Assembly (NCBI GenBank): GCA_030650195.1
Contig: JAUSEP010000009.1
Location: forward strand, 1 to 52,400
Length of the DNA stretch: 52,400 bases
Origin: Candidatus Berkelbacteria bacterium
GTDB taxonomy: Bacteria > Patescibacteriota > UBA1384 > 2-12-FULL-50-11
Direction of reading: 5' to 3'
Made by a program: the position numbers and the translations under genes. Numbering within the stretch: position 1 is the stretch's first letter; every line of letters starts with the position of its first letter. Below, one piece after another: positions 1,849-45,365 of this stretch. A model generated the notes under the pieces. That model had not been told where the DNA came from. It saw only the letters and a program-made list of their open reading frames with translations, and ran no database searches.

Positions 1849-3047
1849 TGAGTATCTTTGAGAATTATAAAACTGCCTTAAAATCTCTCTGGAATAACCG
1901 GCTCCGTAGCTTTCTAACCTTGCTGGGAATTGTGATCGGTGTTTACGCCGTAGTTACATTGCTCGCCGCTGCTCAAGGCGTTCAAAACCAGATAGGAGGT
2001 TTCGTTGAAGATTTTGGACCGAGAACAATTCTGGTGATGCCAGGAGAGTCTGACTCTTCCGGTACACCAAACTTTGCCGCCCAGGCAGCACCTTCAACTC
2101 TCTTGGTTGACGACATCGACTACCTTAAGGCCCATACGACACTTATAGAGAGCGTAATCGACTACGCGGTTTTTATCGGCGGACTTGCAACGCATGGTGA
2201 TAAGAAGCTAACTGGCATGCCAGTTGGTATTACTCCAGGCGCAGAAGAGTTATTCAGCATTAAAATCGTTACTGGACGTAACTTTGAGCAAGCAGATCTC
2301 GACAAGAAGAATCGCTTTATCGTTCTAAGTGAAGCGGCTGCTGATAAACTCGCCGTAAAGGTAGGCGAAACAATGAACATCGGAGTTGATAAGTTTGAGG
2401 TTATTGGCTTATTCAAAATTGATCAGTCGTTGAGTATCAGTTCCGCTCAGGGAGAGATGTTTCTCATTCCCGCTCCAGTTGCCAATGAAATAAATAAATC
2501 TCCTCAAGTAAATCGTATCGTCGTACATTCGAAGACGGTCGAAGATGTAGATAGGGCAATTACCGAAGTCAGAGAAGCGCTCACTACCAAGCACGGCACA
2601 ACAGATTTTACGGTTATGAAACCATCTGAAATCTTAAAAACAGTCGACCAAATCATCAACGTATTGAAATATATGGTTATAGGCATCACTTCCATCTCGC
2701 TATTGGTAGGAGGTATCGGGATCATGAACATCATGCTTGTTACAGTAGCCGAACGAACTCGCGAAATCGGAATTCGCAAAGCAGTTGGTGCAACGGAAGG
2801 TGCAATTCTAACTCAGTTTCTAATAGAATCCGTTCTCTTAACTCTCATTGGGTCATTAATTGGCATAGGATTAGCTGCAATTACCTCATACTTGGCAGCT
2901 AAATTCTCACCTTTGGAACCAGCAATTACTGGCACGACCATTATGATGGCCGTTGGTATGGGTGTCGTCGCTGGAGTGATATTTGGTCTTCTACCTGCTG
3001 TCCGCGCCGCACGCAAGAACCCAGTAACTGCACTCAAGTACGAGTAA
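1848..3047 (+). CDS. ABC transporter permease, FtsX/MacB family
   Basis: It has an N-terminal TM helix, a large extracytoplasmic domain and a C-terminal FtsX-type TM bundle. Its start overlaps the stop of the ATPase gene (ATAATG). Confidence 0.88.
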   Translation: MSIFENYKTALKSLWNNRLRSFLTLLGIVIGVYAVVTLLAAAQGVQNQIGGFVEDFGPRTILVMPGESDSSGTPNFAAQAAPSTLLVDDIDYLKAHTTLIESVIDYAVFIGGLATHGDKKLTGMPVGITPGAEELFSIKIVTGRNFEQADLDKKNRFIVLSEAAADKLAVKVGETMNIGVDKFEVIGLFKIDQSLSISSAQGEMFLIPAPVANEINKSPQVNRIVVHSKTVEDVDRAITEVREALTTKHGTTDFTVMKPSEILKTVDQIINVLKYMVIGITSISLLVGGIGIMNIMLVTVAERTREIGIRKAVGATEGAILTQFLIESVLLTLIGSLIGIGLAAITSYLAAKFSPLEPAITGTTIMMAVGMGVVAGVIFGLLPAVRAARKNPVTALKYE

Positions 3048-3054
3048 AATTACA

Positions 3055-3082
3055 TTGACCCGTAAGCGAAAAGCCATATAAT
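3055..3082 (+). promoter_or_regulatory. hicB promoter, TTGACC-16-TATAAT, leaderless geometry
   Basis: TTGACC at 3055-3060 and TATAAT at 3077-3082. The hicB ATG at 3090 lies only 7 nt after the -10 box. Confidence 0.6.
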
Positions 3083-3089
3083 TGAACTG

Positions 3090-3308
3090 ATGAAAAGTTT
3101 TCGTCACGAATTTACAGCGGTTTTTGAACGAGCACCGGAAGGTGGCTACGCTGTTTATATACCCTCGCTGCCTGGCTGTATCTCCGAAGGCGATACGCTC
3201 GAACAAGCTGAAGAGAATATCCGTGAAGCGGCCGAACTCTACTTAGAAGAAACTCCCCACACCGTCGTCAAAAAAACCGACGCTTTTACTCTGCCGGTCA
3301 GAATATAG
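3090..3308 (+). CDS. hicB: HicB-like antitoxin (UPF0150 fold only, no DNA-binding extension)
   Basis: FTAVFERAPEGGYAVYIPSLPGCISEGDTLEQAEENIREA is typical of the HicB N-terminal domain, and a HicA gene follows 3 nt downstream. Confidence 0.8.
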   Translation: MKSFRHEFTAVFERAPEGGYAVYIPSLPGCISEGDTLEQAEENIREAAELYLEETPHTVVKKTDAFTLPVRI

Positions 3309-3311
3309 CTT

Positions 3312-3536
3312 ATGACGGACTTACCGTCGCTCAAGCCAAAGGTAGTCGCGAGAGCTCTGGAGAAGTCTGGATTCGTTTTTGTTCGTCAGAAAGGTAGTCA
3401 TCGACTTTACCGCCGTGGCGATTACTCAACAACCGTGCCAATTCATAAGAAAGACTTAAAGATGCCGACACTTCGAGCAATTATCTCCCAAGCCGGTTTC
3501 ACGGCTAAAGAGTTTATTGGATTGCTAAAAGACTAG
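3312..3536 (+). CDS. hicA: HicA-family mRNA interferase toxin
   Basis: The YcfA/HicA signature is present: ...LEKSGFVFVRQKGSHRLYRR...VPIHKKDLKMPTLRAIISQAG. Confidence 0.85.
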   Translation: MTDLPSLKPKVVARALEKSGFVFVRQKGSHRLYRRGDYSTTVPIHKKDLKMPTLRAIISQAGFTAKEFIGLLKD

Positions 3537-3555
3537 CTTTTTGCACAAAAATACC

Positions 3556-3584
3556 TTGACCCAATGTAAAGTTTCCTTTACATT
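3556..3584 (+). promoter_or_regulatory. Promoter TTGACC-17-TACATT with a perfect 9-4-9 palindromic operator
   Basis: TTGACC at 3556-3561. AATGTAAAG (3563-3571), tttc, CTTTACATT (3576-3584) form the palindrome, and its right arm contains the -10 box. The ATG at 3593 lies 8 nt after the -10 box. Confidence 0.6.
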
Positions 3585-3592
3585 ATGGGTAA

Positions 3593-4294
3593 ATGTCAGC
3601 GGAATTACGATTACTCTTAAGGGATCTACGCCAAGCACAAGATCTAAGCCAAGACGAGCTAGCTCGTCAACTTGGTATCTCTCGCCAATCTATCATTTCC
3701 TTAGAACAAGGTGCTTACTTACCAAGCTTTCCGCTACTTATTAATATGATTCACTTCTTCAACTGCTCTTTAGAAGAGCTAGTTGAGGGAGCGCCTAAGT
3801 TAATCCAACAAGAAAATAACCAAAATATTGAGGAAGGAGGTGAGCAAGATATGCAGATAGCACGATGGGATCCTTTTCAAGCAATCGATAAAATGCACGA
3901 CGAAATGGGAGATGTAGTTGAAAGAACATTTGGTCGTGTCGACTGGCCACGAGCTCTCGGTACTACTGCCGGTGCAATGAATATCCACGAAACCGACAAG
4001 GAATATGAAATTCAAGTTCAGGTTCCAGGATATAAAGAAGATGAAATTAATCTAGAATTCTCTGATGACACCCTAACTATTTCCGGAGAGAAGAAAGTTG
4101 AAGAGCAAGAAGAAAAAAAGAATACAATTCGCCGAGAGTGGACTCATGCTAGTTTCTCTCGTCAGGTGCGCTTTGCTCAACCAATAAAGGACGAGAAAGT
4201 TGAAGCCAAGCTCTCAGACGGAACACTAACAATTACCGCTCCGAAAGTGGAGCCGGTAAAACCAAAGATCAAGAAGATTGAAGTGAAGAAGTAG
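3593..4294 (+). CDS. XRE-family HTH domain fused in frame to an Hsp20/alpha-crystallin small heat-shock domain
   Basis: N-terminus: LSQDELARQLGISRQSIISLEQG (HTH_XRE). C-terminus: WDPF...MNIHETDKEYEIQVQVPGYKEDEINLEFSDDTLTISGEKK...SFSRQVRFAQPI...AKLSDGTLTITAPK (alpha-crystallin domain). No stop codon separates the two domains. Confidence 0.85.
   Translation: MSAELRLLLRDLRQAQDLSQDELARQLGISRQSIISLEQGAYLPSFPLLINMIHFFNCSLEELVEGAPKLIQQENNQNIEEGGEQDMQIARWDPFQAIDKMHDEMGDVVERTFGRVDWPRALGTTAGAMNIHETDKEYEIQVQVPGYKEDEINLEFSDDTLTISGEKKVEEQEEKKNTIRREWTHASFSRQVRFAQPIKDEKVEAKLSDGTLTITAPKVEPVKPKIKKIEVKK
3836..3853 (+). promoter_or_regulatory. Internal Shine-Dalgarno GGAGGTG plus in-frame ATG (codon 87) at the linker/sHSP boundary
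   Basis: GGAGGTG at 3836-3842, an 8-nt spacer, then ATG at 3851 in the same frame as the 3593 start (MQIARWDPF...). Confidence 0.5.
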
Positions 4295-4295
4295 G

Positions 4296-4333
4296 ACGAC
4301 AGCGGATACGGAGGAAAAAAGCCGTATCGTCGT
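4296..4333 (+). terminator. Hairpin terminator after the HTH-Hsp20 gene
   Basis: ACGAC(agcg)GATACGG-aggaaaaaag-CCGTATCGTCGT, then TATT, directly after the stop codon. Confidence 0.55.
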
Positions 4334-38527: not shown

Positions 38528-39784
38528 TTATTGTTTTACTCCAGAAAGGGCTTTTTTCATCAGTGTCTCTAGCATACTCGTTTGACCAATCAAGTCTAAG
38601 GCAACATTTCCTAAGGCCATCGGAGTAACTTGAGAAATATCCTGGAGAGTTTTTGTTTCGTCTACCATATTGGCCACATCATTCGGCTTAATAAATTGAA
38701 CCTCAGGCGCTCGAGCAAATGGCAGATCTTTTGACCACTCCCTATCAGACAAAACTTCTTTAATTTCTGGCAGATTGCTGCCCCCACCACAAAGTAGAAT
38801 TTTTGATGGTAGCAGATCGCCCTCACCAAAATCTTCCAACGATATTTGTAATGCAGATAGCCAAACCTGCGTATCATTTTTAAGGGCGTGTCGAACAAGT
38901 TCAGATTTTTCTTTATCTAGCTTACCGCTGGAGTAGGCAATCTTAGCTTCTTCTGCATTAGCAAAAGTCTCGCCTAATACCGCCGCGACTCTTTTTGTAA
39001 AAGCTCTACCTCCTATAGCAAACATTTTCGTGCCATCAACTCCGCCGTTTCGTACAACGGCAATATCTGTTGTTCCACCACCAATATCTATAAAGGTTGC
39101 GGCAAAGTCTGTAGATTCTTCGTTTAGGCATCGAGCAACTGCGTACGGTTCAGCGGCAATCGCCAGTAATTCTAAGTTTAGCTCCCGAACAACGGTTTCT
39201 AACGCTCCAAATTGGACGATAGGGGCAAAAGCGTTGTAAACCCCGACGGAAAGCTCCTTGCCCTGGTAACTCATTGGATTTGAAACCTTGTAACCATCAA
39301 TAACAACAGAGACGATTGCGGCGTTAACTAATTGAATATCTATTTCTTCTAAGCCAGTTTCTTCAGCTAACTCCTTGCGAGCTTGAGTGAAGGCCTGAGC
39401 TTGAACTTGGTTAACGATATCTTGAAGTTCGGAAACCTGGATTTGAGTTTGGGGTTTTTGACGAGTAACTTTTACCGTTGTCGTCGCCCCCTTTACAAGC
39501 TCTCCAGCTATACCAACGATCGCTTTATCCGGAAGGAATTGAGCTTGGGTTGCAGCTTGTTCAATAGCCTTCTCACAGTTTTGGGCAACGCCATGGATAT
39601 CCGTAATTCCACCACCCTGCATGTCAGATAGCCTCTGTCGAGCTCGGCCAACTCCACGGATATGACCTTCTCCGTCTATAGCCTCAAAAACTAGAGCTTT
39701 CACAAACTCCGTCCCGATGTCTAAGGATATTGCCCAATTGTTCTGTTTTTTGCGCCCCCCAAACAGCCCCATATGTAGTATCAA
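38528..39784 (-). CDS. ftsA: FtsA/PilM-like actin-family ATPase
   Basis: ISLDIGTEFVKALVF and FIDIGGGTTDIAVV are the phosphate-1 and phosphate-2 motifs, followed by LLCGGGSNLP. Confidence 0.75.
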   Translation of the reverse strand: MILHMGLFGGRKKQNNWAISLDIGTEFVKALVFEAIDGEGHIRGVGRARQRLSDMQGGGITDIHGVAQNCEKAIEQAATQAQFLPDKAIVGIAGELVKGATTTVKVTRQKPQTQIQVSELQDIVNQVQAQAFTQARKELAEETGLEEIDIQLVNAAIVSVVIDGYKVSNPMSYQGKELSVGVYNAFAPIVQFGALETVVRELNLELLAIAAEPYAVARCLNEESTDFAATFIDIGGGTTDIAVVRNGGVDGTKMFAIGGRAFTKRVAAVLGETFANAEEAKIAYSSGKLDKEKSELVRHALKNDTQVWLSALQISLEDFGEGDLLPSKILLCGGGSNLPEIKEVLSDREWSKDLPFARAPEVQFIKPNDVANMVDETKTLQDISQVTPMALGNVALDLIGQTSMLETLMKKALSGVKQ

Positions 39785-39838
39785 CGTACCAGATATGCAC
39801 TACCTTCCGCAATCAACAGAATAATGTAAGCTCGAGCT

Positions 39839-41287
39839 ATGAGTGTTGAAAATGGACCAAGTGACAAAGATATAAACTTTAAGGTACCTTTAGCAGACGG
39901 AACTGCACCGTCAGGCGAACCCACCTTGGACCCAGAAAGCGAGAAAGGCGAGGAACGAGTCGAGCGACTGGTCGAGTCCGAGGAGATGGCACTATTACGC
40001 AGCGAGGCGTACATAACAATCAACGCGCTATTAAAAGCTGGTGCAGCTCATGTCAAAGAAGCTGGTCAAACAACGGTACTGCCTCGAGACTCATTTGTTA
40101 AAAAGTACCTTAACTCGTACCTAGAACTCGGCCAGGCCGCCATTGAAAAAGTTGTTCCAGAAGGTCAAGAGCAGGCTCAATTCGACCTTGTGGTTATCAG
40201 TGCTCGTTTCGAGCAAGATTGTGGATTTGAGCCGGAAGCCATCGAGCGTCTTGGTCAGACCGATGCAGCCCTAACCGACGCTGATAGCAAAGAGCTGAGT
40301 AGCCGCTGGGTGGAGTCCAAGACCACCTGGGTCGGGCGCCCACGGCTAGAAACTGAAAAGTTGGCCGAACCCATGGTTGAGTCAGCAGAAATGGTTCAAT
40401 TACGTCAGCTGGCCTCCGACACTATCGAGAGATTGCGTCCAGAGACCGGAGAATTGCAAGCCGGGTTTGCACTGAATCGAGATGAATTTGTCGCTAGCTT
40501 TCTAGACCCATACCTAGAGCTCGGGCAGGGATTGATTAAGCAATCTGTCCCGGAAGAGGGTTGGGAGACGGCCGGGCTCGAGCTAGCAGTAATGGCTGTA
40601 CAGTTTCAAGCTGACTGCGGTTTCAAAAGCAATGGTGATAACTCACTTATCATTCTCACTGACGAGGTTAAGCATACAAAGCCCGAGAAGCTACCGATTT
40701 TTCGAAAGAATCTAGATGTACTAAAAGCTCGGGCGGAAGCAAGTTGGGTCAAGTCAACGATTCAGCCCGAGGTTCAGATTCCTCAAGATCAAATCGAGCG
40801 TTTCCTCCAAGGCGTCGCTATAGAAACCTTTGAAGAGGAAGAAAGCTCTGGGCAATCGATCAATTGCCAGCTGAACGAAGATGTTAGTCTGCCCGACTTT
40901 CGACTCCTTATTCAAAAAGCGATTCTGCCCCAACTAACCTACACCGACACGCTCAGGGTTAGGGGTGATAACCTACCGCCAGAATATCTAGATGCTCTGG
41001 CCGACGAGGTGCTTCGAACTGACTTCCCGATTATCTGTGTCTACGACAAGGCGTCCGGTGAATACCAAGTTACTTATGATGAAACGGGGGAGGATTCCTC
41101 GGAGGACGAACCGACTCCAGCAGAATTAATTGACGCCTGCCGAGAGGTGCTTGATGGAGATTCGTTAGAAGCTCTCAATGAATGTGAAGATTTCGAAGAG
41201 GCGATGGGACTAGTGTTCACCATGCTCATTGAAGCTGGAGTTGAAGATCCCGAACAGTTCCTACGTGAAAAAGGCCTGATTCAATAA
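39839..41287 (+). CDS. Acidic hypothetical protein with an internal tandem duplication of an approximately 130-aa module (P1)
   Basis: aa 45-165 align with aa 180-305: VESxEMxxLR ... RDxFVxxxLxxYLELGQxxIxxxVPE ... FxxDCGF ... SxWVxS. It is GC-richer than its neighbours and lacks a signal peptide or TM segment. Confidence 0.65.
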   Translation: MSVENGPSDKDINFKVPLADGTAPSGEPTLDPESEKGEERVERLVESEEMALLRSEAYITINALLKAGAAHVKEAGQTTVLPRDSFVKKYLNSYLELGQAAIEKVVPEGQEQAQFDLVVISARFEQDCGFEPEAIERLGQTDAALTDADSKELSSRWVESKTTWVGRPRLETEKLAEPMVESAEMVQLRQLASDTIERLRPETGELQAGFALNRDEFVASFLDPYLELGQGLIKQSVPEEGWETAGLELAVMAVQFQADCGFKSNGDNSLIILTDEVKHTKPEKLPIFRKNLDVLKARAEASWVKSTIQPEVQIPQDQIERFLQGVAIETFEEEESSGQSINCQLNEDVSLPDFRLLIQKAILPQLTYTDTLRVRGDNLPPEYLDALADEVLRTDFPIICVYDKASGEYQVTYDETGEDSSEDEPTPAELIDACREVLDGDSLEALNECEDFEEAMGLVFTMLIEAGVEDPEQFLREKGLIQ

Positions 41288-41289
41288 CC

Positions 41290-41313
41290 CCCTGTGCGGA
41301 GGCCTCTTCTTTA
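41290..41313. repeat. Copy A: half-copy of the alaS 3'-end hairpin repeat (3' arm plus T-rich tail only)
   Basis: CCCTGTGCGGAGGCCTCTTCTTTA is identical over 24 nt to 42735-42758. It begins 2 nt after the P1 stop. Confidence 0.85.
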
Positions 41314-41380
41314 CCCCCTAACCCTGGACAAGCAACGCCAATAGCGATAAAGTTTCTGCATAGTTCGTACGGAGGACAAT

Positions 41381-41941
41381 TTGAGAACTTTTCAAATGCA
41401 AGCACTCGAGAAACTGTCAGAGATTCTCGAACCAGAGTCCCTAAGCACTCTTCTCTCTGTCGCCAGCGGTTTTACTGCGGCTAACATAGGAAGTGTTAAT
41501 GACTTACTCGCTGATCCAGACGGTTTCACCACCTGGATCGAACAGGAGCGGAAACAGGACAAAGAAGAGCCGGAATCAGTCGACGCAAGCCTGTCGTTTC
41601 AGAGATTTGTTCAAGAGGGAGTTCGCCTCTTTCTGGAATCCACGCCGTCAACTGTTTGCGGGACGGGGATGGAAATGTTGGGCAGCTTCGACGGAACAGG
41701 CTTTCGCAAGCACTGCCTTAGCTGTAAGAAGTGTGCTGACGCCCTCATCTATCTCCACTGGATGGCACTCCAGAAACATCTGGTCGATTGTTTGTGGTTG
41801 GCTAGTCAGAAAAATAAGGGGAAACTAGGGCGGTTGCTGGGCATCCCGGAAACGGAGCTCACCAAGGATTTTGTTGAAAGCTACCCGGAAGATGAGAAAG
41901 TATTCAGCCATCTAATCCGGCTGAAGCAACGCAAACCCTAA
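41381..41941 (+). CDS. Hypothetical Cys-rich protein, paralogue of 42120-42707 (P2); C-x17-H-x3-C-x2-C motif
   Basis: TTG start preceded by GGAGG plus 5 nt. C93...H111-C-L-S-C115-K-K-C118. It aligns with P3 (LExESLxxL, TPxxxCxxG, FxxHCxxCxxC). Confidence 0.65.
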   Translation: MRTFQMQALEKLSEILEPESLSTLLSVASGFTAANIGSVNDLLADPDGFTTWIEQERKQDKEEPESVDASLSFQRFVQEGVRLFLESTPSTVCGTGMEMLGSFDGTGFRKHCLSCKKCADALIYLHWMALQKHLVDCLWLASQKNKGKLGRLLGIPETELTKDFVESYPEDEKVFSHLIRLKQRKP

Positions 41942-41954
41942 CTTTGTCACTCTC

Positions 41955-41999
41955 GCCTTGAGCCTTCGCACCCTGTGCGGAGGCTTCTTCTTTAAGAAT
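41955..41999. repeat. Copy B: relic of the alaS 3' end (hairpin repeat), frameshifted
   Basis: GCCTTGAGCCTTCGCACCCTGTGCGGAGGCTTCTTCTTTAAGAAT differs from 42717-42763 by one substitution and a 2-nt gap. Its reverse strand reads ILKEEASAQG / VRRLKARVTK. Confidence 0.85.
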
Positions 42000-42119
42000 T
42001 TGAAGCGACCTAGTTGGCCGGTTTTTCTATATTTGGACTAAATGAAACGGCATAGAACCATTCACTTCTCTTGGAAAACGAAGTACTATGCCCATATCTT
42101 TGAACGTTAGGAGATCAGG

Positions 42120-42707
42120 ATGCAACAAGCGATAACCATGCGCCGACTAGGAAGGGTCCTAGAGGCTGAAAGTTTGGCAAAATTGACCGAGTATCTACCC
42201 GATCTATTCAGGATCGACTCAGACCTCTTCTCGGCAATCAGCGAAAGTCTAGATCGGGCTCGGGAAGAAGGGAAATGGTTTTTGGGTGAGTGCTTCGGAA
42301 GACTAGCACCAGAAAACAGCGAGACTCGCAAACTAGCTCATGCAGACATTGAGAAGCTGGCACCGGTGGACGATCATGAATTCAAAAAGGCCCTCGCTTC
42401 CTTAACGGAGTTCTTCAACTACACACCGGTTCAGCCTTGCCAAGACGGCTTGATCTTGTTGGCGCAACTCAACCAGCAAGCTTTCGAGTCTCATTGCGAG
42501 AACTGTCCAAACTGCGTTGTAGCAGGCCGTTACGCCGACTGCTACCTGTTTTGGCACCACCTCAATTCGTTGGTGGAAGAGATACTGCGATCAGAGCCAG
42601 ATGCTATGCGAGAAGGTCAGCCAGACAGCGAGCGTCTGGTGAGAACAATCTTCTCAGAACCCGTGACCGGCCTTTCGAAGCTACGCTTGAAAGCTACCGA
42701 GACCTAA
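42120..42707 (+). CDS. Hypothetical Cys-rich protein, paralogue of 41381-41941 (P3); C-x17-H-x3-C-x2-C motif
   Basis: AGGAG plus 6 nt precede the ATG. C107...H125-C-E-N-C129-P-N-C132. Its stop TAA (42705-07) overlaps the alaS stop (42704-06). Confidence 0.65.
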   Translation: MQQAITMRRLGRVLEAESLAKLTEYLPDLFRIDSDLFSAISESLDRAREEGKWFLGECFGRLAPENSETRKLAHADIEKLAPVDDHEFKKALASLTEFFNYTPVQPCQDGLILLAQLNQQAFESHCENCPNCVVAGRYADCYLFWHHLNSLVEEILRSEPDAMREGQPDSERLVRTIFSEPVTGLSKLRLKATET

Positions 42708-44389
42708 ACAACCCGTGCCTTGAGCCTTCGCACTCCCTGTGCGGAGGCCTCTTCTTTAAGAATCTCGAATTTTCCTAATTCGCCTGTATTTTTTATGTGG
42801 GGGCCACCACAAAGTTCTTTTGAAAAGTCCCCGATCGAATAAACCGAGACTGTTTCACCGTATTTTTGACCAAACTCTGCCAGTGCTCCAGATTTCAAAG
42901 CCTCATCTTTAGACATTTCTTGCTTCTCAACTGGTAAGCTAGCTTCAATTTTATCGTTTACGATAGTCTCTACTTCCTTTATCTCGTCGTCAGTTAGCTT
43001 GCGGTCGAAAGAAAAGTCTAGTCGCAAACGCTCTTTGGTAACATTAGATCCTTTTTGAACTACACCGTTACCCAAAACTTTTCGTAATGCCGCCAGCAGT
43101 AAGTGATGAGCGGTATGGTGCTTAATTGTCTGCTCATCGTGATCGGCTAGTCCGCCCTTAAATAACCCCTCAGAACCTTGTCGTGAAGTTTCTTGGTGTT
43201 CAGCGAATAATCTAGCGAATAATTCGCTATCAAAATCCCAACCTAGGTCACGTAGATGCTCTAAGAGCAACTCTTTCGGGAAACCAAAAGACTCGAAAAG
43301 ATAGAATGCCAATTTAGTTATCTCCTCGCTGGTAGGCTGATTACTTTGGGTTGCCACCCACCGATCTAGGTGCCCAATTGCTCGAACCAAATTTTTTTCA
43401 AATTGAGCTTGCTCGTCAGCAAAAACTTTAATAACTTTCTCTGGATCTGTCAGCGTGTAAGACGGAGCATAATAAGAATGGATTTCTGTAATTATCTTAG
43501 ATATGTCAGCCTTGATAGCTGCTCGACGTTCCAAAAAAACAATTTTCCGGATGAGTCTACGTAAAATATAGTCACGGCCTTTGTTGGACGGAGTTACTCC
43601 AACACTAACCAAAAATAGAATTGCCCGAAGATGATCAACAATAATTTTACTCTCGTATTCGCGTGTTGGATCTACCATATCCACCCAACTCACAAACGGC
43701 TCGATCGCCCAGACACTACGGTGACTCTGTAAGGTTGCCGAAAGACGTTCTAAGCCACTTCCGGTGTCTAAGCCTGCCTGGGGTAATTTCTCGAACTTAC
43801 TATCAGTATTCTTGTAATACTCGGCAAAAACTAAATTCCAAACTTCAATACCATCAATATAAATTTCAGTGCAAGGACCGCAAGGACCTTCGTCGCCCGC
43901 TGGCCCCCAAAAGTTATCAACACGCCCCATTCTTTTGACTTCAATACCCAACATCTGCCAAATACCTTCTGATTCGGTATCTCCTGGCGTCAACTTGTCG
44001 CCCTTAAAGACCGTAGCCGACACTCTCTCTTTCACAACTCCGAGTCTCTTGTGAACAAAGTTCCAAGCTTCTTTAATGGCAGTTTCTTTCATCCTTAGGC
44101 TCGACTCTTCACCGAAGCGGAAGTTACCAAGCATCTCAAATATTGTTAGATGTGTGGCATCACCAACTTCGCCGATATCTGAAGTTCGGAAAACTGGCTG
44201 GATAGTTACCACAGATTTAGCAGGCGCATCCAGCGGGGATGAATAGAACTCCTTGAACTGCTGCATACCCGCAGTAGTAAACAGAACTGACGGATCATTA
44301 CGAGGTATAAGACTAGATTCGGCCTGTCGTACGTATCCAAGGTCTGTGAAGTAGCCAACAAAGTTTTTTCTAACCTCGTCTAATTGCAT
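42704..44389 (-). CDS. alaS: Alanine--tRNA ligase, short form ending after the editing domain (no C-Ala domain)
   Basis: N-terminus VRKNFVGYFTDLGYVRQAESSLIPRNDPSVLFTTAGMQQFK. Editing motifs HTAHHLL and CGGPH. The C-terminus ...GVRRLKARVV corresponds to the conserved AGVRRIEAV segment. Confidence 0.92.
   Translation of the reverse strand: MQLDEVRKNFVGYFTDLGYVRQAESSLIPRNDPSVLFTTAGMQQFKEFYSSPLDAPAKSVVTIQPVFRTSDIGEVGDATHLTIFEMLGNFRFGEESSLRMKETAIKEAWNFVHKRLGVVKERVSATVFKGDKLTPGDTESEGIWQMLGIEVKRMGRVDNFWGPAGDEGPCGPCTEIYIDGIEVWNLVFAEYYKNTDSKFEKLPQAGLDTGSGLERLSATLQSHRSVWAIEPFVSWVDMVDPTREYESKIIVDHLRAILFLVSVGVTPSNKGRDYILRRLIRKIVFLERRAAIKADISKIITEIHSYYAPSYTLTDPEKVIKVFADEQAQFEKNLVRAIGHLDRWVATQSNQPTSEEITKLAFYLFESFGFPKELLLEHLRDLGWDFDSELFARLFAEHQETSRQGSEGLFKGGLADHDEQTIKHHTAHHLLLAALRKVLGNGVVQKGSNVTKERLRLDFSFDRKLTDDEIKEVETIVNDKIEASLPVEKQEMSKDEALKSGALAEFGQKYGETVSVYSIGDFSKELCGGPHIKNTGELGKFEILKEEASAQGVRRLKARVV
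42717..42763. repeat. Copy C: hairpin repeat lying inside the functional alaS 3' end
   Basis: GCCTTGAGCCTTCGCACTCCCTGTGCGGAGGCCTCTTCTTTAAGAAT. The reverse strand encodes ILKEEASAQGVRRLKA of AlaRS. On the plus strand it forms a hairpin (42724-42748) followed by a T-rich tail after P3. Confidence 0.85.
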
Positions 44390-45117: not shown

Positions 45118-45195
45118 CTGGTTAAGTGTAACAGAGAAATATTAGAGCTGTCGACCGCCGCGCAGAGCCGTCAATCCAACCAAAGTTACATGTAG

Positions 45196-45279
45196 TGCCC
45201 AGGAGAGGACTTGAACCTCCACGGACTTTCGTCCACATCCACCTCAAGGATGCGCGGATACCAATTTCGCCACCTGGGC
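45196..45279 (-). tRNA. tRNA-Leu (GAG)
   Basis: GCCCAGG/CCTGGGC acceptor stem, anticodon loop TTGAGGT, long variable arm, T arm GGAGG-TTCAAGT-CCTCT. Confidence 0.9.
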
Positions 45280-45282
45280 TTG

Positions 45283-45365
45283 TGCCTGGAAGAGGACTTG
45301 AACCTCCAAGGGGTTACCCCCACACGAACCTGAATCGTGCGCGTCTGCCATTTCGCCACCCAGGC
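45283..45365 (-). tRNA. tRNA-Leu (CAG)
   Basis: GCCTGGG/TCCAGGC acceptor stem, anticodon loop TTCAGGT, long variable arm. It lies 3 nt from the other tRNA-Leu. Confidence 0.9.

Follow-up and report, generated by a model that had tools for sequence, protein, structure and literature searches.

Displaced alaS 3′ ends in the hypervariable interval between alaS and ftsA of Candidatus Berkelbacteria

A contig from a Candidatus Berkelbacteria metagenome-assembled genome (JAUSEP010000009.1, analysed over its whole length of 52.4 kb and hereafter called the window) carries the alanyl-tRNA synthetase gene alaS close to an ftsA-like gene, and the interval between the two holds three small genes (P1, P2 and P3) and two displaced pieces of an alaS 3′ end (relics A and B). 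Among relatives, this alaS–ftsA interval is hypervariable, being polymorphic both in the presence of genes and in the cargo it carries, and at least five lineages (the window, L009, L004, L006 and L032) with differing cargo carry displaced alaS 3′ relics. On balance, we regard the interval as a recombination hot spot where displacement is anchored by homology and the relics are its scars, a reading that we favour without holding it to be secure. The locus does not reveal a new molecular machine, and the arrangement is probably not a new mobile-cassette system.

The live alaS end and its relics

The alaS gene (42704–44389, minus strand) encodes a short alanyl-tRNA synthetase (AlaRS) of 561 amino acids (aa), which has Pfam matches to tRNA-synt_2c (1.7e-80) and tRNA_SAD (7.3e-18, residues 514–556) and stops immediately past the tRNA_SAD editing domain. 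It shares 82–93 per cent aa identity with Berkelbacteria/Patescibacteria relatives, and an exact-protein look-up gave no match. Within the last 20 alaS codons lies a 47-nt core (ILKEEASAQGVRRLKA, 42717–42763; copy C), which on the plus strand forms a 10-bp GC-rich hairpin followed by CTCTTCTTTAAG and is terminator-like for P3. A 24-nt motif from this core, CCCTGTGCGGAGGC[C/T]TCTTCTTTA, is found at 41290–41313 (no mismatches), 41971–41994 (one mismatch) and 42735–42758 (no mismatches); at up to three mismatches there are no further matches in the 52.4 kb and none in 100 shuffles, so the three copies reported in an earlier note on this DNA are real. Searched as the string CCCTGTGCGGAGGCCTCTTCTTTA (the alaS copy at 42735), it likewise has three copies in the 52.4 kb, all of them at the alaS–ftsA locus.

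Relic B (41942–42036, minus strand), located behind P2, is a displaced and frameshifted alaS 3′ end of about 95 nt (PHIEKTGQLGRF-ILKEEASAQG-VRRLKARV). In a local alignment, 41955–42030 pairs with 42717–42796, and a single substitution and a gap of 2 nt set the cores of B and C apart; on its reverse strand, B gives LQILKEEASAQG and, past a frame shift, VRRLKARVTK, as the earlier note had described. The note's extent for this copy needs correction: BLAST searches against the alaS ends of relatives (E-values down to 7e-22) carry the relic to approximately 42036, beyond the 42010 given before, and B has an additional 1-nt deletion, the complete minus-strand reading being ...PHIEKTGQLGRF(-1)ILKEEASAQG(-2)VRRLKARV. 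Seven synonymous and three non-synonymous codon differences separate relic B from the resident alaS. Each of the three replacement residues also occurs in the functional AlaRS allele of L006, and at the four differing codons within and beyond the hairpin core (codons 14 and 25–27), relic B has exactly the L004/L005 codons; codon usage is L006-like on the left and L004/L005-like on the right. Judged by these codons, relic B once evolved as coding sequence, as the earlier note had proposed, and as an allele other than the resident alaS.

Relic A (41287–41313, minus strand), located behind P1, is a 27-nt alaS-end stub (LKEEASAQG) in which nothing of the hairpin but its 3′ arm remains, together with the T-rich tail, and which, as claimed before, is identical to copy C at 24 of 24 positions. 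It directly abuts a piece of the ftsA promoter, and an identical junction is present in L006. A further claim, that the stop codon of the cargo gene overlaps an alaS stop as CTAA behind both P2 and P3, is accurate for P3 and the live alaS; a CTAA is also present behind P2, but it falls outside the reading frame of relic B and is preceded by a 4-nt insertion.

The interval in related genomes

We gathered relatives by scanning species-representative genomes and metagenomes and by exact-protein look-ups, and more than 14 loci with neighbouring alaS and ftsA-like genes were informative. The ftsA-like gene of the window (38528–39772, minus strand; start MGLFGG at 39772; Pfam FtsA, 1.1e-15) is the second conserved anchor of the interval, and the 5′ end of this gene has 93–99 per cent aa identity within the close clade. 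At the nucleotide level, the 5′ end at 39741–39772 (ATGGGGCTGTTTGGGGGGCGCAAAAAACAGAA) is nearly invariant across genomes whose alaS genes are 20–30 per cent different.

Between these anchors, the interval measures 78–130 nt without any gene in L017 and L020 (distant clade), 600 nt with one gene in L003, L011 and L016, about 1 kb with one or two genes in L005, L006 and L009, 1.5 kb with an IS200-like transposase in L007, L018 and L019, 1.7–1.8 kb with several genes in L002, L004 and L012, and 2935 nt (2.9 kb) with three genes in the window. The comparison of alaS 3′ flanks suggested in the earlier note has thus yielded empty sites, varying gene numbers and varying cargo.

Outside the window, displaced alaS ends are located at positions 4306–4364 of L009, 3767–3918 and 2987–3013 of L004, 9205–9219 of L006 and approximately 735–800 of L032 (score of 76 against a null maximum of 27). 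Displacement, in which a new gene stands beside alaS and an older alaS end has been pushed downstream, is independent in these lineages and in the window. For five of the seven relics, an alaS allele from a foreign lineage is a better match than the resident allele. The L009 relic, for example, is identical to the window alaS at 56 of 59 positions (with a perfect run of 49 nt) versus 50 of 60 to its own alaS, and L004 relic 2 belongs to the class "SSQGVRRIKA", whereas the live L004 end is of the class "ASAQGVRRLKA". Relative to the stop codon, the left ends of the relics lie at about −70 nt (window A, L006 and L009), −105 (L004 relic 1), −125 (window B) and −150 (L004 relic 2). A search for copies of the core motif that covered the contig, 305 kb of related loci and viral contigs found none outside alaS ends and relics, which speaks against the earlier note's own counter-proposal of a genome-wide repetitive extragenic palindromic (REP) element within the DNA covered.

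The alaS gene itself appears to be a recombination patchwork. The 47-nt core of the window alaS is identical to that of L004 at 46 positions, compared with 71.8 per cent identity for alaS overall (1630 nt; P = 3.4e-6). Window and L009 alaS are 96–100 per cent identical in the first 360 nt and 62–93 per cent identical beyond, with an isolated block of 93 per cent about 450 nt before the end, and L009 alaS changes its allele class at the hairpin loop. Because alaS is so heavily mosaic, homologous recombination at this locus is likely to be frequent.

Two loci carry insertions of other kinds. At L007:8690–10155 (and also in L018 and L019), an IS200-like Y1 transposase (PF01797, 1.1e-6) directly follows alaS and is flanked by the hairpin CCCCGCTCCAGGAGCGGGG, into the first copy of which the AlaRS open reading frame (ORF) runs for about 14 codons; L017 and L020, with their empty spacers of 78–130 nt, are sisters of the L007-type genomes. 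The Y1 transposase was seen only in this distant clade, with a hairpin different from that of alaS, and we rejected the L007 triple hairpin as a parallel case of alaS relics, since these hairpins belong to the IS200-like insertion into which the alaS ORF reads. In L004, a gene with a PaaX_M/Cas2-like domain (3025–3684; Pfam 4.6e-16) is accompanied by a 30-nt perfect palindrome (TTAATCTATTACCGTACGGTAATAGATTAA) at 3071 and 3730, and two direct copies of a 27-nt alaS fragment lie outside the palindrome pair; the whole region (L004:2987–3859) looks like a nested insertion within a displaced alaS relic.

Displaced promoter pieces and the identity of the units

The divergent ftsA/P1 promoter region occupies 39773–39838 and shows the pattern TTGC-N17-19-TGGTAnnnT in an alignment of sequences upstream of ftsA. 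A displaced ftsA/cargo promoter piece lies at 41320–41353 (plus strand) with the motif AACCCTGGACAAGCAAC at 41320–41336 (score of 33 against a null maximum of 24). The 17-nt motif (GTTGCTTGTCCAGGGTT) corresponds to the −35/spacer portion of the ftsA promoter in L006, L009 and L023, and it also lies inside the interval, directly against alaS relics, in the window (beside A), L004 and L006. On the plus strand of the window, it yields TGGACA-N17-TAAAGT upstream of P2, the sole promoter-like site in the scanned spacers between cargo genes, and the P2 upstream region is collinear with a genuine spacer between ftsA and a P2 orthologue in L023. Upstream of relic B, the L009 relic and L004 relic 2, matches to ftsA-promoter relics are not significant. 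With a promoter piece at one end and an alaS piece at the other, the P2 unit would therefore be the complete interval of another strain; more generally, from their sequences the units look like whole interval "alleles" of related strains that have been stacked side by side.

Cargo genes

Most cargo genes of the interval are orphans, and two families, P1-like and P2/P3, recur. P2 (41396–41941, plus strand; 181 aa; alternative TTG start at 41381) and P3 (42120–42707, plus strand; 195 aa; stop overlapping the alaS stop as CTAA) belong to one family, P3 as a divergent member, and are only weakly homologous to each other (E-value of 7e-7), in agreement with the distant similarity noted earlier. P2 is 43 per cent identical to its orthologue in L023 and 35 per cent to that in L026, two genomes whose alaS genes are about 61 per cent identical to the window alaS at the nucleotide level, compared with 21 per cent to P3. 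With orthologues in distant genomes more similar to P2 than its own neighbour is, P2 and P3 are not recent local duplicates.

An exhaustive profile search of 1.84 billion proteins recovered seven representatives of the P2/P3 family, and all members with readable flanks reside in the ftsA–alaS interval. In L023, L026 and L030, no gene other than the family member stands between alaS and a called ftsA-like gene; on the short contigs L032 and L033, the alaS end is recognized by translation only. Given this restriction to the locus wherever flanks can be read, the family would be an ancestral resident of the interval and not roaming cargo. The restriction applies to the P1-like and P2/P3 families, the wider distribution of the other cargo genes not having been searched. 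These other genes are not hidden P2/P3 members, since the P2/P3 profile has no matches among all other cargo proteins. Pfam likewise gave no matches for the cargo proteins (P1, P2 and P3, and those of L002–L006 and L007) except for the PaaX/Cas2-like domain in L004 and the IS200-like transposase in L007. An AlphaFold2 model of P2 is all-alpha (predicted local distance difference test score of 86.5), a Foldseek search of this model against the PDB returned no match below an E-value of 1, and the invariant C, H, C and C residues of the family may point to a metal site.

P1 (39839–41287, plus strand; 482 aa) forms the ftsA-proximal unit and is 81 per cent identical to a gene in L002 and 45 per cent to one in L005; the P1-like family has members in the window, L002 and L005 and, distantly, in L032. 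Its internal YLELGQ repeats belong to modules of about 130 aa (FV..YL..YLELGQ...DCGF), with direct DNA repeats at 40118, 40511 and 40719. The P1 homologue of L002 (2790–3167) has an in-frame TAA before its last 58 or so codons, which are intact in the window, and between it and alaS lies a 47-codon ORF, the end of which resembles the C-terminus of a 179-aa gene product of L003; this stretch is probably another decayed unit. In L032, the alaS-adjacent gene (717–1751) is the distant P1-family member (E-value of 6e-8). This gene and the alaS relic, which lie on opposite strands, overlap at the called start of the gene, and the two cargo families stand in the reverse of their order in the window.

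A predicted terminator within the alaS end

Copies B and C are the two best terminator-like matches on the plus strand (12 and 10 pairs, respectively), which bears out the earlier description of the alaS-tail hairpin as terminator-like on that strand. The hairpin of relic B (41960–41986) and its T-rich tail are terminator-like for P2. Compared with shuffled sequences, copy C folds with z = −3.2 and copy B with z = −2.65; copy A by itself has no fold (z = +1.5). Both B and C present a stem-loop and a U-rich tract just past a stop codon, a combination that stub A alone lacks. Among relatives, alaS ends of class H (window, L004, L005 and L006) and the relics B, L009 and L006 have a hairpin with a U-rich tail and GC-rich stems of 9–13 bp (mostly 10–13 bp), and they fold significantly on the cargo strand only (z = −2.9 to −4.8), whereas alaS ends of class N have no fold. 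The hairpin sits at the position expected of a cargo terminator because the cargo stop overlaps the alaS stop.

Minimal relics stop exactly where the T-rich tail stops. Of the original hairpin, the L006 relic retains only the 3′ arm, along with the T-tract, and it now pairs this arm with a new and perfect 5′ arm. Selection for a terminator of the upstream gene has probably preserved the hairpin and the T-rich portion of each relic. Selection on the hairpin was one half of an alternative put forward in the earlier note, and the fold on the cargo strand and the new 5′ arm in L006 both argue for it. Such selection for termination would account for repeats that are 90–100 per cent identical standing beside genes that are about 20 per cent identical. 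With its GC-rich stem and U-rich tract right after the cargo stop on the cargo strand only, the element resembles an intrinsic terminator in the 3′ coding end of a convergent gene. It differs in that its U-tract is interrupted (UCUUCUUUAAG) and that it has been copied along with genes, termination itself being predicted.

Possible origins of the array

The interval is bounded by two highly conserved anchors, and a strain usually holds one or a few fast-evolving small genes in it, transcribed away from ftsA and converging on alaS. Because the stop codons overlap and the class-H terminator hairpin lies within the last 20 alaS codons, any complete cargo unit includes an alaS tail. We propose that homology in alaS anchors the recombination of DNA from related strains with the locus and that the usual result would be an allele swap. 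Occasionally, the far end of the incoming DNA may form an illegitimate junction within the resident alaS tail or immediately ahead of it; a new alaS 3′ end would then be provided together with the incoming gene, and the old tail and old gene would move towards ftsA. Applied to the window, this order of arrival would make P1 with stub A the oldest and most eroded unit, followed by P2 with relic B and then by P3 with the live end C as the newest. A converse model, anchored at ftsA with the newest unit next to ftsA, was rejected as a poorer fit: in L004, L009 and L032, it is the alaS-side unit that is absent from simpler relatives.

Several points weigh against homology-anchored displacement. The illegitimate recombination that it invokes is read from end products alone, with no event observed directly, and the model takes for granted that these uncultured bacteria take up and recombine DNA. 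The search for recombinases was that of a 52.4-kb contig, and a recombinase acting in trans could be encoded elsewhere in the genome. The relics of window A, L006 and L009 start within 4 nt of one position (TTAAAGAAG), which could reflect a site preference instead of erosion to the terminator. In L009, an insert of about 0.5 kb is flanked on both sides by an identical 31-nt core, and the alaS allele switches exactly at the edge of the core, as expected if a circle had integrated at a core site by one crossover. Finally, the identity of A and C at 24 of 24 positions is hard to square with A being the oldest relic, barring selection or gene conversion.

Of the alternatives, in-situ tandem duplication fares best, although we think it unlikely. 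Here, a gene would have been duplicated together with the alaS tail, with the gene copies diverging and the hairpin held constant by selection, by gene conversion from alaS or by both. P2 and P3 are indeed homologous and adjacent, the junction of promoter piece and alaS piece is exactly what duplication of the interval creates, and the hairpin is the very part of the relics that is conserved. Yet P2 is far closer to its orthologues in genomes with about 61 per cent identical alaS (43 and 35 per cent) than to P3 (21 per cent), which does not fit this option of the earlier note, and those genomes are single-copy. Relic B, moreover, retains alaS-like sequence beyond the hairpin with codons of foreign alleles, and the genes next to alaS in L009, L004 and L032 bear no relation to the displaced genes.

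We give slightly less credence to site-specific cassette integration, in which a recombinase encoded elsewhere would recognize the alaS-tail hairpin or core and insert circular one-gene units with a replacement alaS end, in the manner of an integron or a satellite carrying cargo only. Each unit is flanked by direct repeats of the target 3′ end and the gene is always restored; the same gene end has been hit independently in at least five lineages, the cargo genes of the window are all co-oriented, and the 31-nt core around the L009 insert and the three relic starts within 4 nt fit as well. On a crossover core shared across insertions, the loci give a mixed picture: L009 is compatible with a core of 31 nt and window B is not, since relic B has alaS-type sequence of non-resident origin on both sides of the core, and a crossover at the core would leave element sequence at the left. 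The left ends of the relics are spread over −70 to −150 nt, units bear fragments of the ftsA promoter, and the recurring cargo families were seen at the alaS–ftsA locus only. No integrase or transposase was detected by Pfam among 45 ORFs of the window (39 of at least 120 aa outside the locus and 6 at the locus), confirming the earlier remark that no recombinase is visible there; P1, P2, P3 and the cargo of L002–L006 have no Pfam match to a recombinase or its remnant; no GTTRRRY/RYYYAAC boxes were seen by eye; and copies elsewhere in the 305 kb or in viral contigs are lacking. Of the earlier proposal that units of one gene and a replacement alaS end were inserted repeatedly, the relics, the polymorphism and the displacement thus stand, but a defined site or cassette system lacks support, in view of the variable boundaries, the ftsA-promoter pieces and the absence of an integrase, an attC-like box or a dispersed copy in the DNA searched. 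A more speculative form, and a somewhat less probable one, would make the alaS-tail hairpin the att site of an undescribed trans-acting system of Patescibacteria that shuttles circles of 0.5–1.5 kb with promoter, gene and terminator. If true, it would constitute an integron-like capture platform without a resident integrase and with an att site in the coding sequence of an essential aminoacyl-tRNA synthetase gene.

Just as improbable is a combined origin, in which one or a few old tandem duplications gave a scaffold (alaS-X-junction-X-ftsA) and homologous recombination then replaced units via alaS, the relics and the promoter pieces. The window and L006 do share the promoter–relic junction despite alaS genes that are about 74 per cent identical, and the heavy mosaicism of alaS would supply the frequent homologous recombination required. 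However, at least four further junctions (window B, L009, L004 twice and L032) differ, so the formation of junctions must be recurrent anyway, and relics of 27–100 nt are short anchors.

An assembly chimera, with alleles of co-occurring strains concatenated at shared k-mers, can practically be dismissed. An independent Logan assembly matches the window at 39756–42764 with no mismatches over 3009 nt, and its contig ends do lie at spots where strain variants would branch (within the conserved ftsA 5′ end at 39756 and right past the conserved alaS core at 42764); but neither the junction of A with the promoter piece nor relic B, which has indels and flanks of its own, is a shared k-mer, both being novel adjacencies, and analogous architectures occur in unrelated samples (L004, L009 and L032).

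Comparison with known systems

The closest parallel to homology-anchored displacement at alaS is found in polymorphic toxin loci, namely the displacement of C-terminal ends in Rhs and contact-dependent inhibition (CDI) genes (Jackson 2009, PMC2935791) and the sequential displacement of effector–immunity modules of type VI secretion systems (T6SS) (Kirchberger 2017, PMC5361080). For Rhs and T6SS arrays, homology-facilitated illegitimate recombination without an integrase has been proposed (PMC2935791; PMC5361080). In those systems, as would be the case here, homology within a conserved gene body provides the anchor, a new 3′ end arrives on incoming DNA with one or more downstream genes, and the old 3′ end and its partner are shifted downstream, so that orphan 3′ fragments punctuate a gene array. 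Tandem orphan 3′ fragments with associated genes behind an intact gene are present in the window (A and B), L004, L006, L009 and L032, and the orphan fragments have functional counterparts among the alleles of other strains. The parallel does not extend to a toxin 3′ end with its immunity gene: the alaS end is the conserved end of an editing domain, and the cargo is without Pfam or PDB match. The anchor here is an essential housekeeping gene whose alternative 3′ ends are functionally equivalent and not toxins; the cargo converges on alaS, consists of locus-specific orphans and apparently does not comprise immunity genes; the relic would be kept for its cargo terminator; and some units carry a relic of the ftsA promoter. 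By analogy, the alaS–ftsA locus may be described as a housekeeping-gene variant of a known displacement process. A literature search on hot spots in Patescibacteria returned nothing relevant.

Integrative elements that target the 3′ ends of tRNA or protein genes likewise leave a partial copy of the target 3′ end at the far side of the insert and restore the target, and direct repeats resembling attL and attR, derived from the target 3′ end, are seen here with a restored gene. In tycheposon islands, elements accrete in tandem at gene 3′ ends (Hackl et al., bioRxiv 10.1101/2020.12.28.424599); with accretion of this type, each newcomer displaces earlier insertions outward, and partial copies remain scattered behind, as at alaS. 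The locus differs in that no tyrosine recombinase or remnant was found in the units or the window, the units are single genes of 0.5–1.5 kb, the boundaries of the repeats are inconstant and the cargo comes from the homologous locus of relatives.

Like an integron array, the window has co-oriented single genes that are each followed by a conserved imperfect palindrome, with repeats far more conserved than the genes. The Pfam scan of the 45 ORFs found no IntI gene with attI beside the array, a position that is occupied by ftsA; the R′/R″ boxes of attC were not seen by eye in GCCTTGAGCCTTCGCAC..GTGCGGAGGCCTCTTCTTTAAG, where the hairpin is present (no pattern search was run). Unlike in integrons, the hairpin lies in coding sequence, at least one unit, that of P2, comes with a promoter-like site of its own, and the recurring P1 and P2/P3 families were not found beyond the alaS–ftsA interval where flanks were readable. 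With three copies in 52.4 kb, and only alaS ends and relics in the 305 kb, the motif also does not behave as a dispersed repeat of the REP/RAYT or IS200–IS605 kind.

Other features of the window

In the vicinity of the locus, Rfam identifies two tRNA-Leu genes and nothing else. ARAGORN places them at 45195–45365 as a tandem pair (gag and cag) separated by 3 nt, about 75 nt downstream of an SLT-domain gene, which comes after alaS in the same orientation. At the start of the contig (74–170), the same program calls a 97-nt "tRNA-Cys (aca)", the length and anticodon of which are odd.

Implications

The alaS–ftsA locus provides an unusually readable record of gene gain without recognizable mobile elements in a streamlined, uncultured bacterium of the candidate phyla radiation. 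If homology-anchored displacement is correct, alleles of related strains have been stacked at one locus and so give rise to apparent paralogues and to scars of both flanking core genes, and the displacement model of polymorphic toxin loci would extend to a housekeeping gene. A predicted terminator embedded in coding sequence would thereby be copied and reused. The alaS–ftsA junction may also be useful for strain typing and for tracking recombination in Berkelbacteria.

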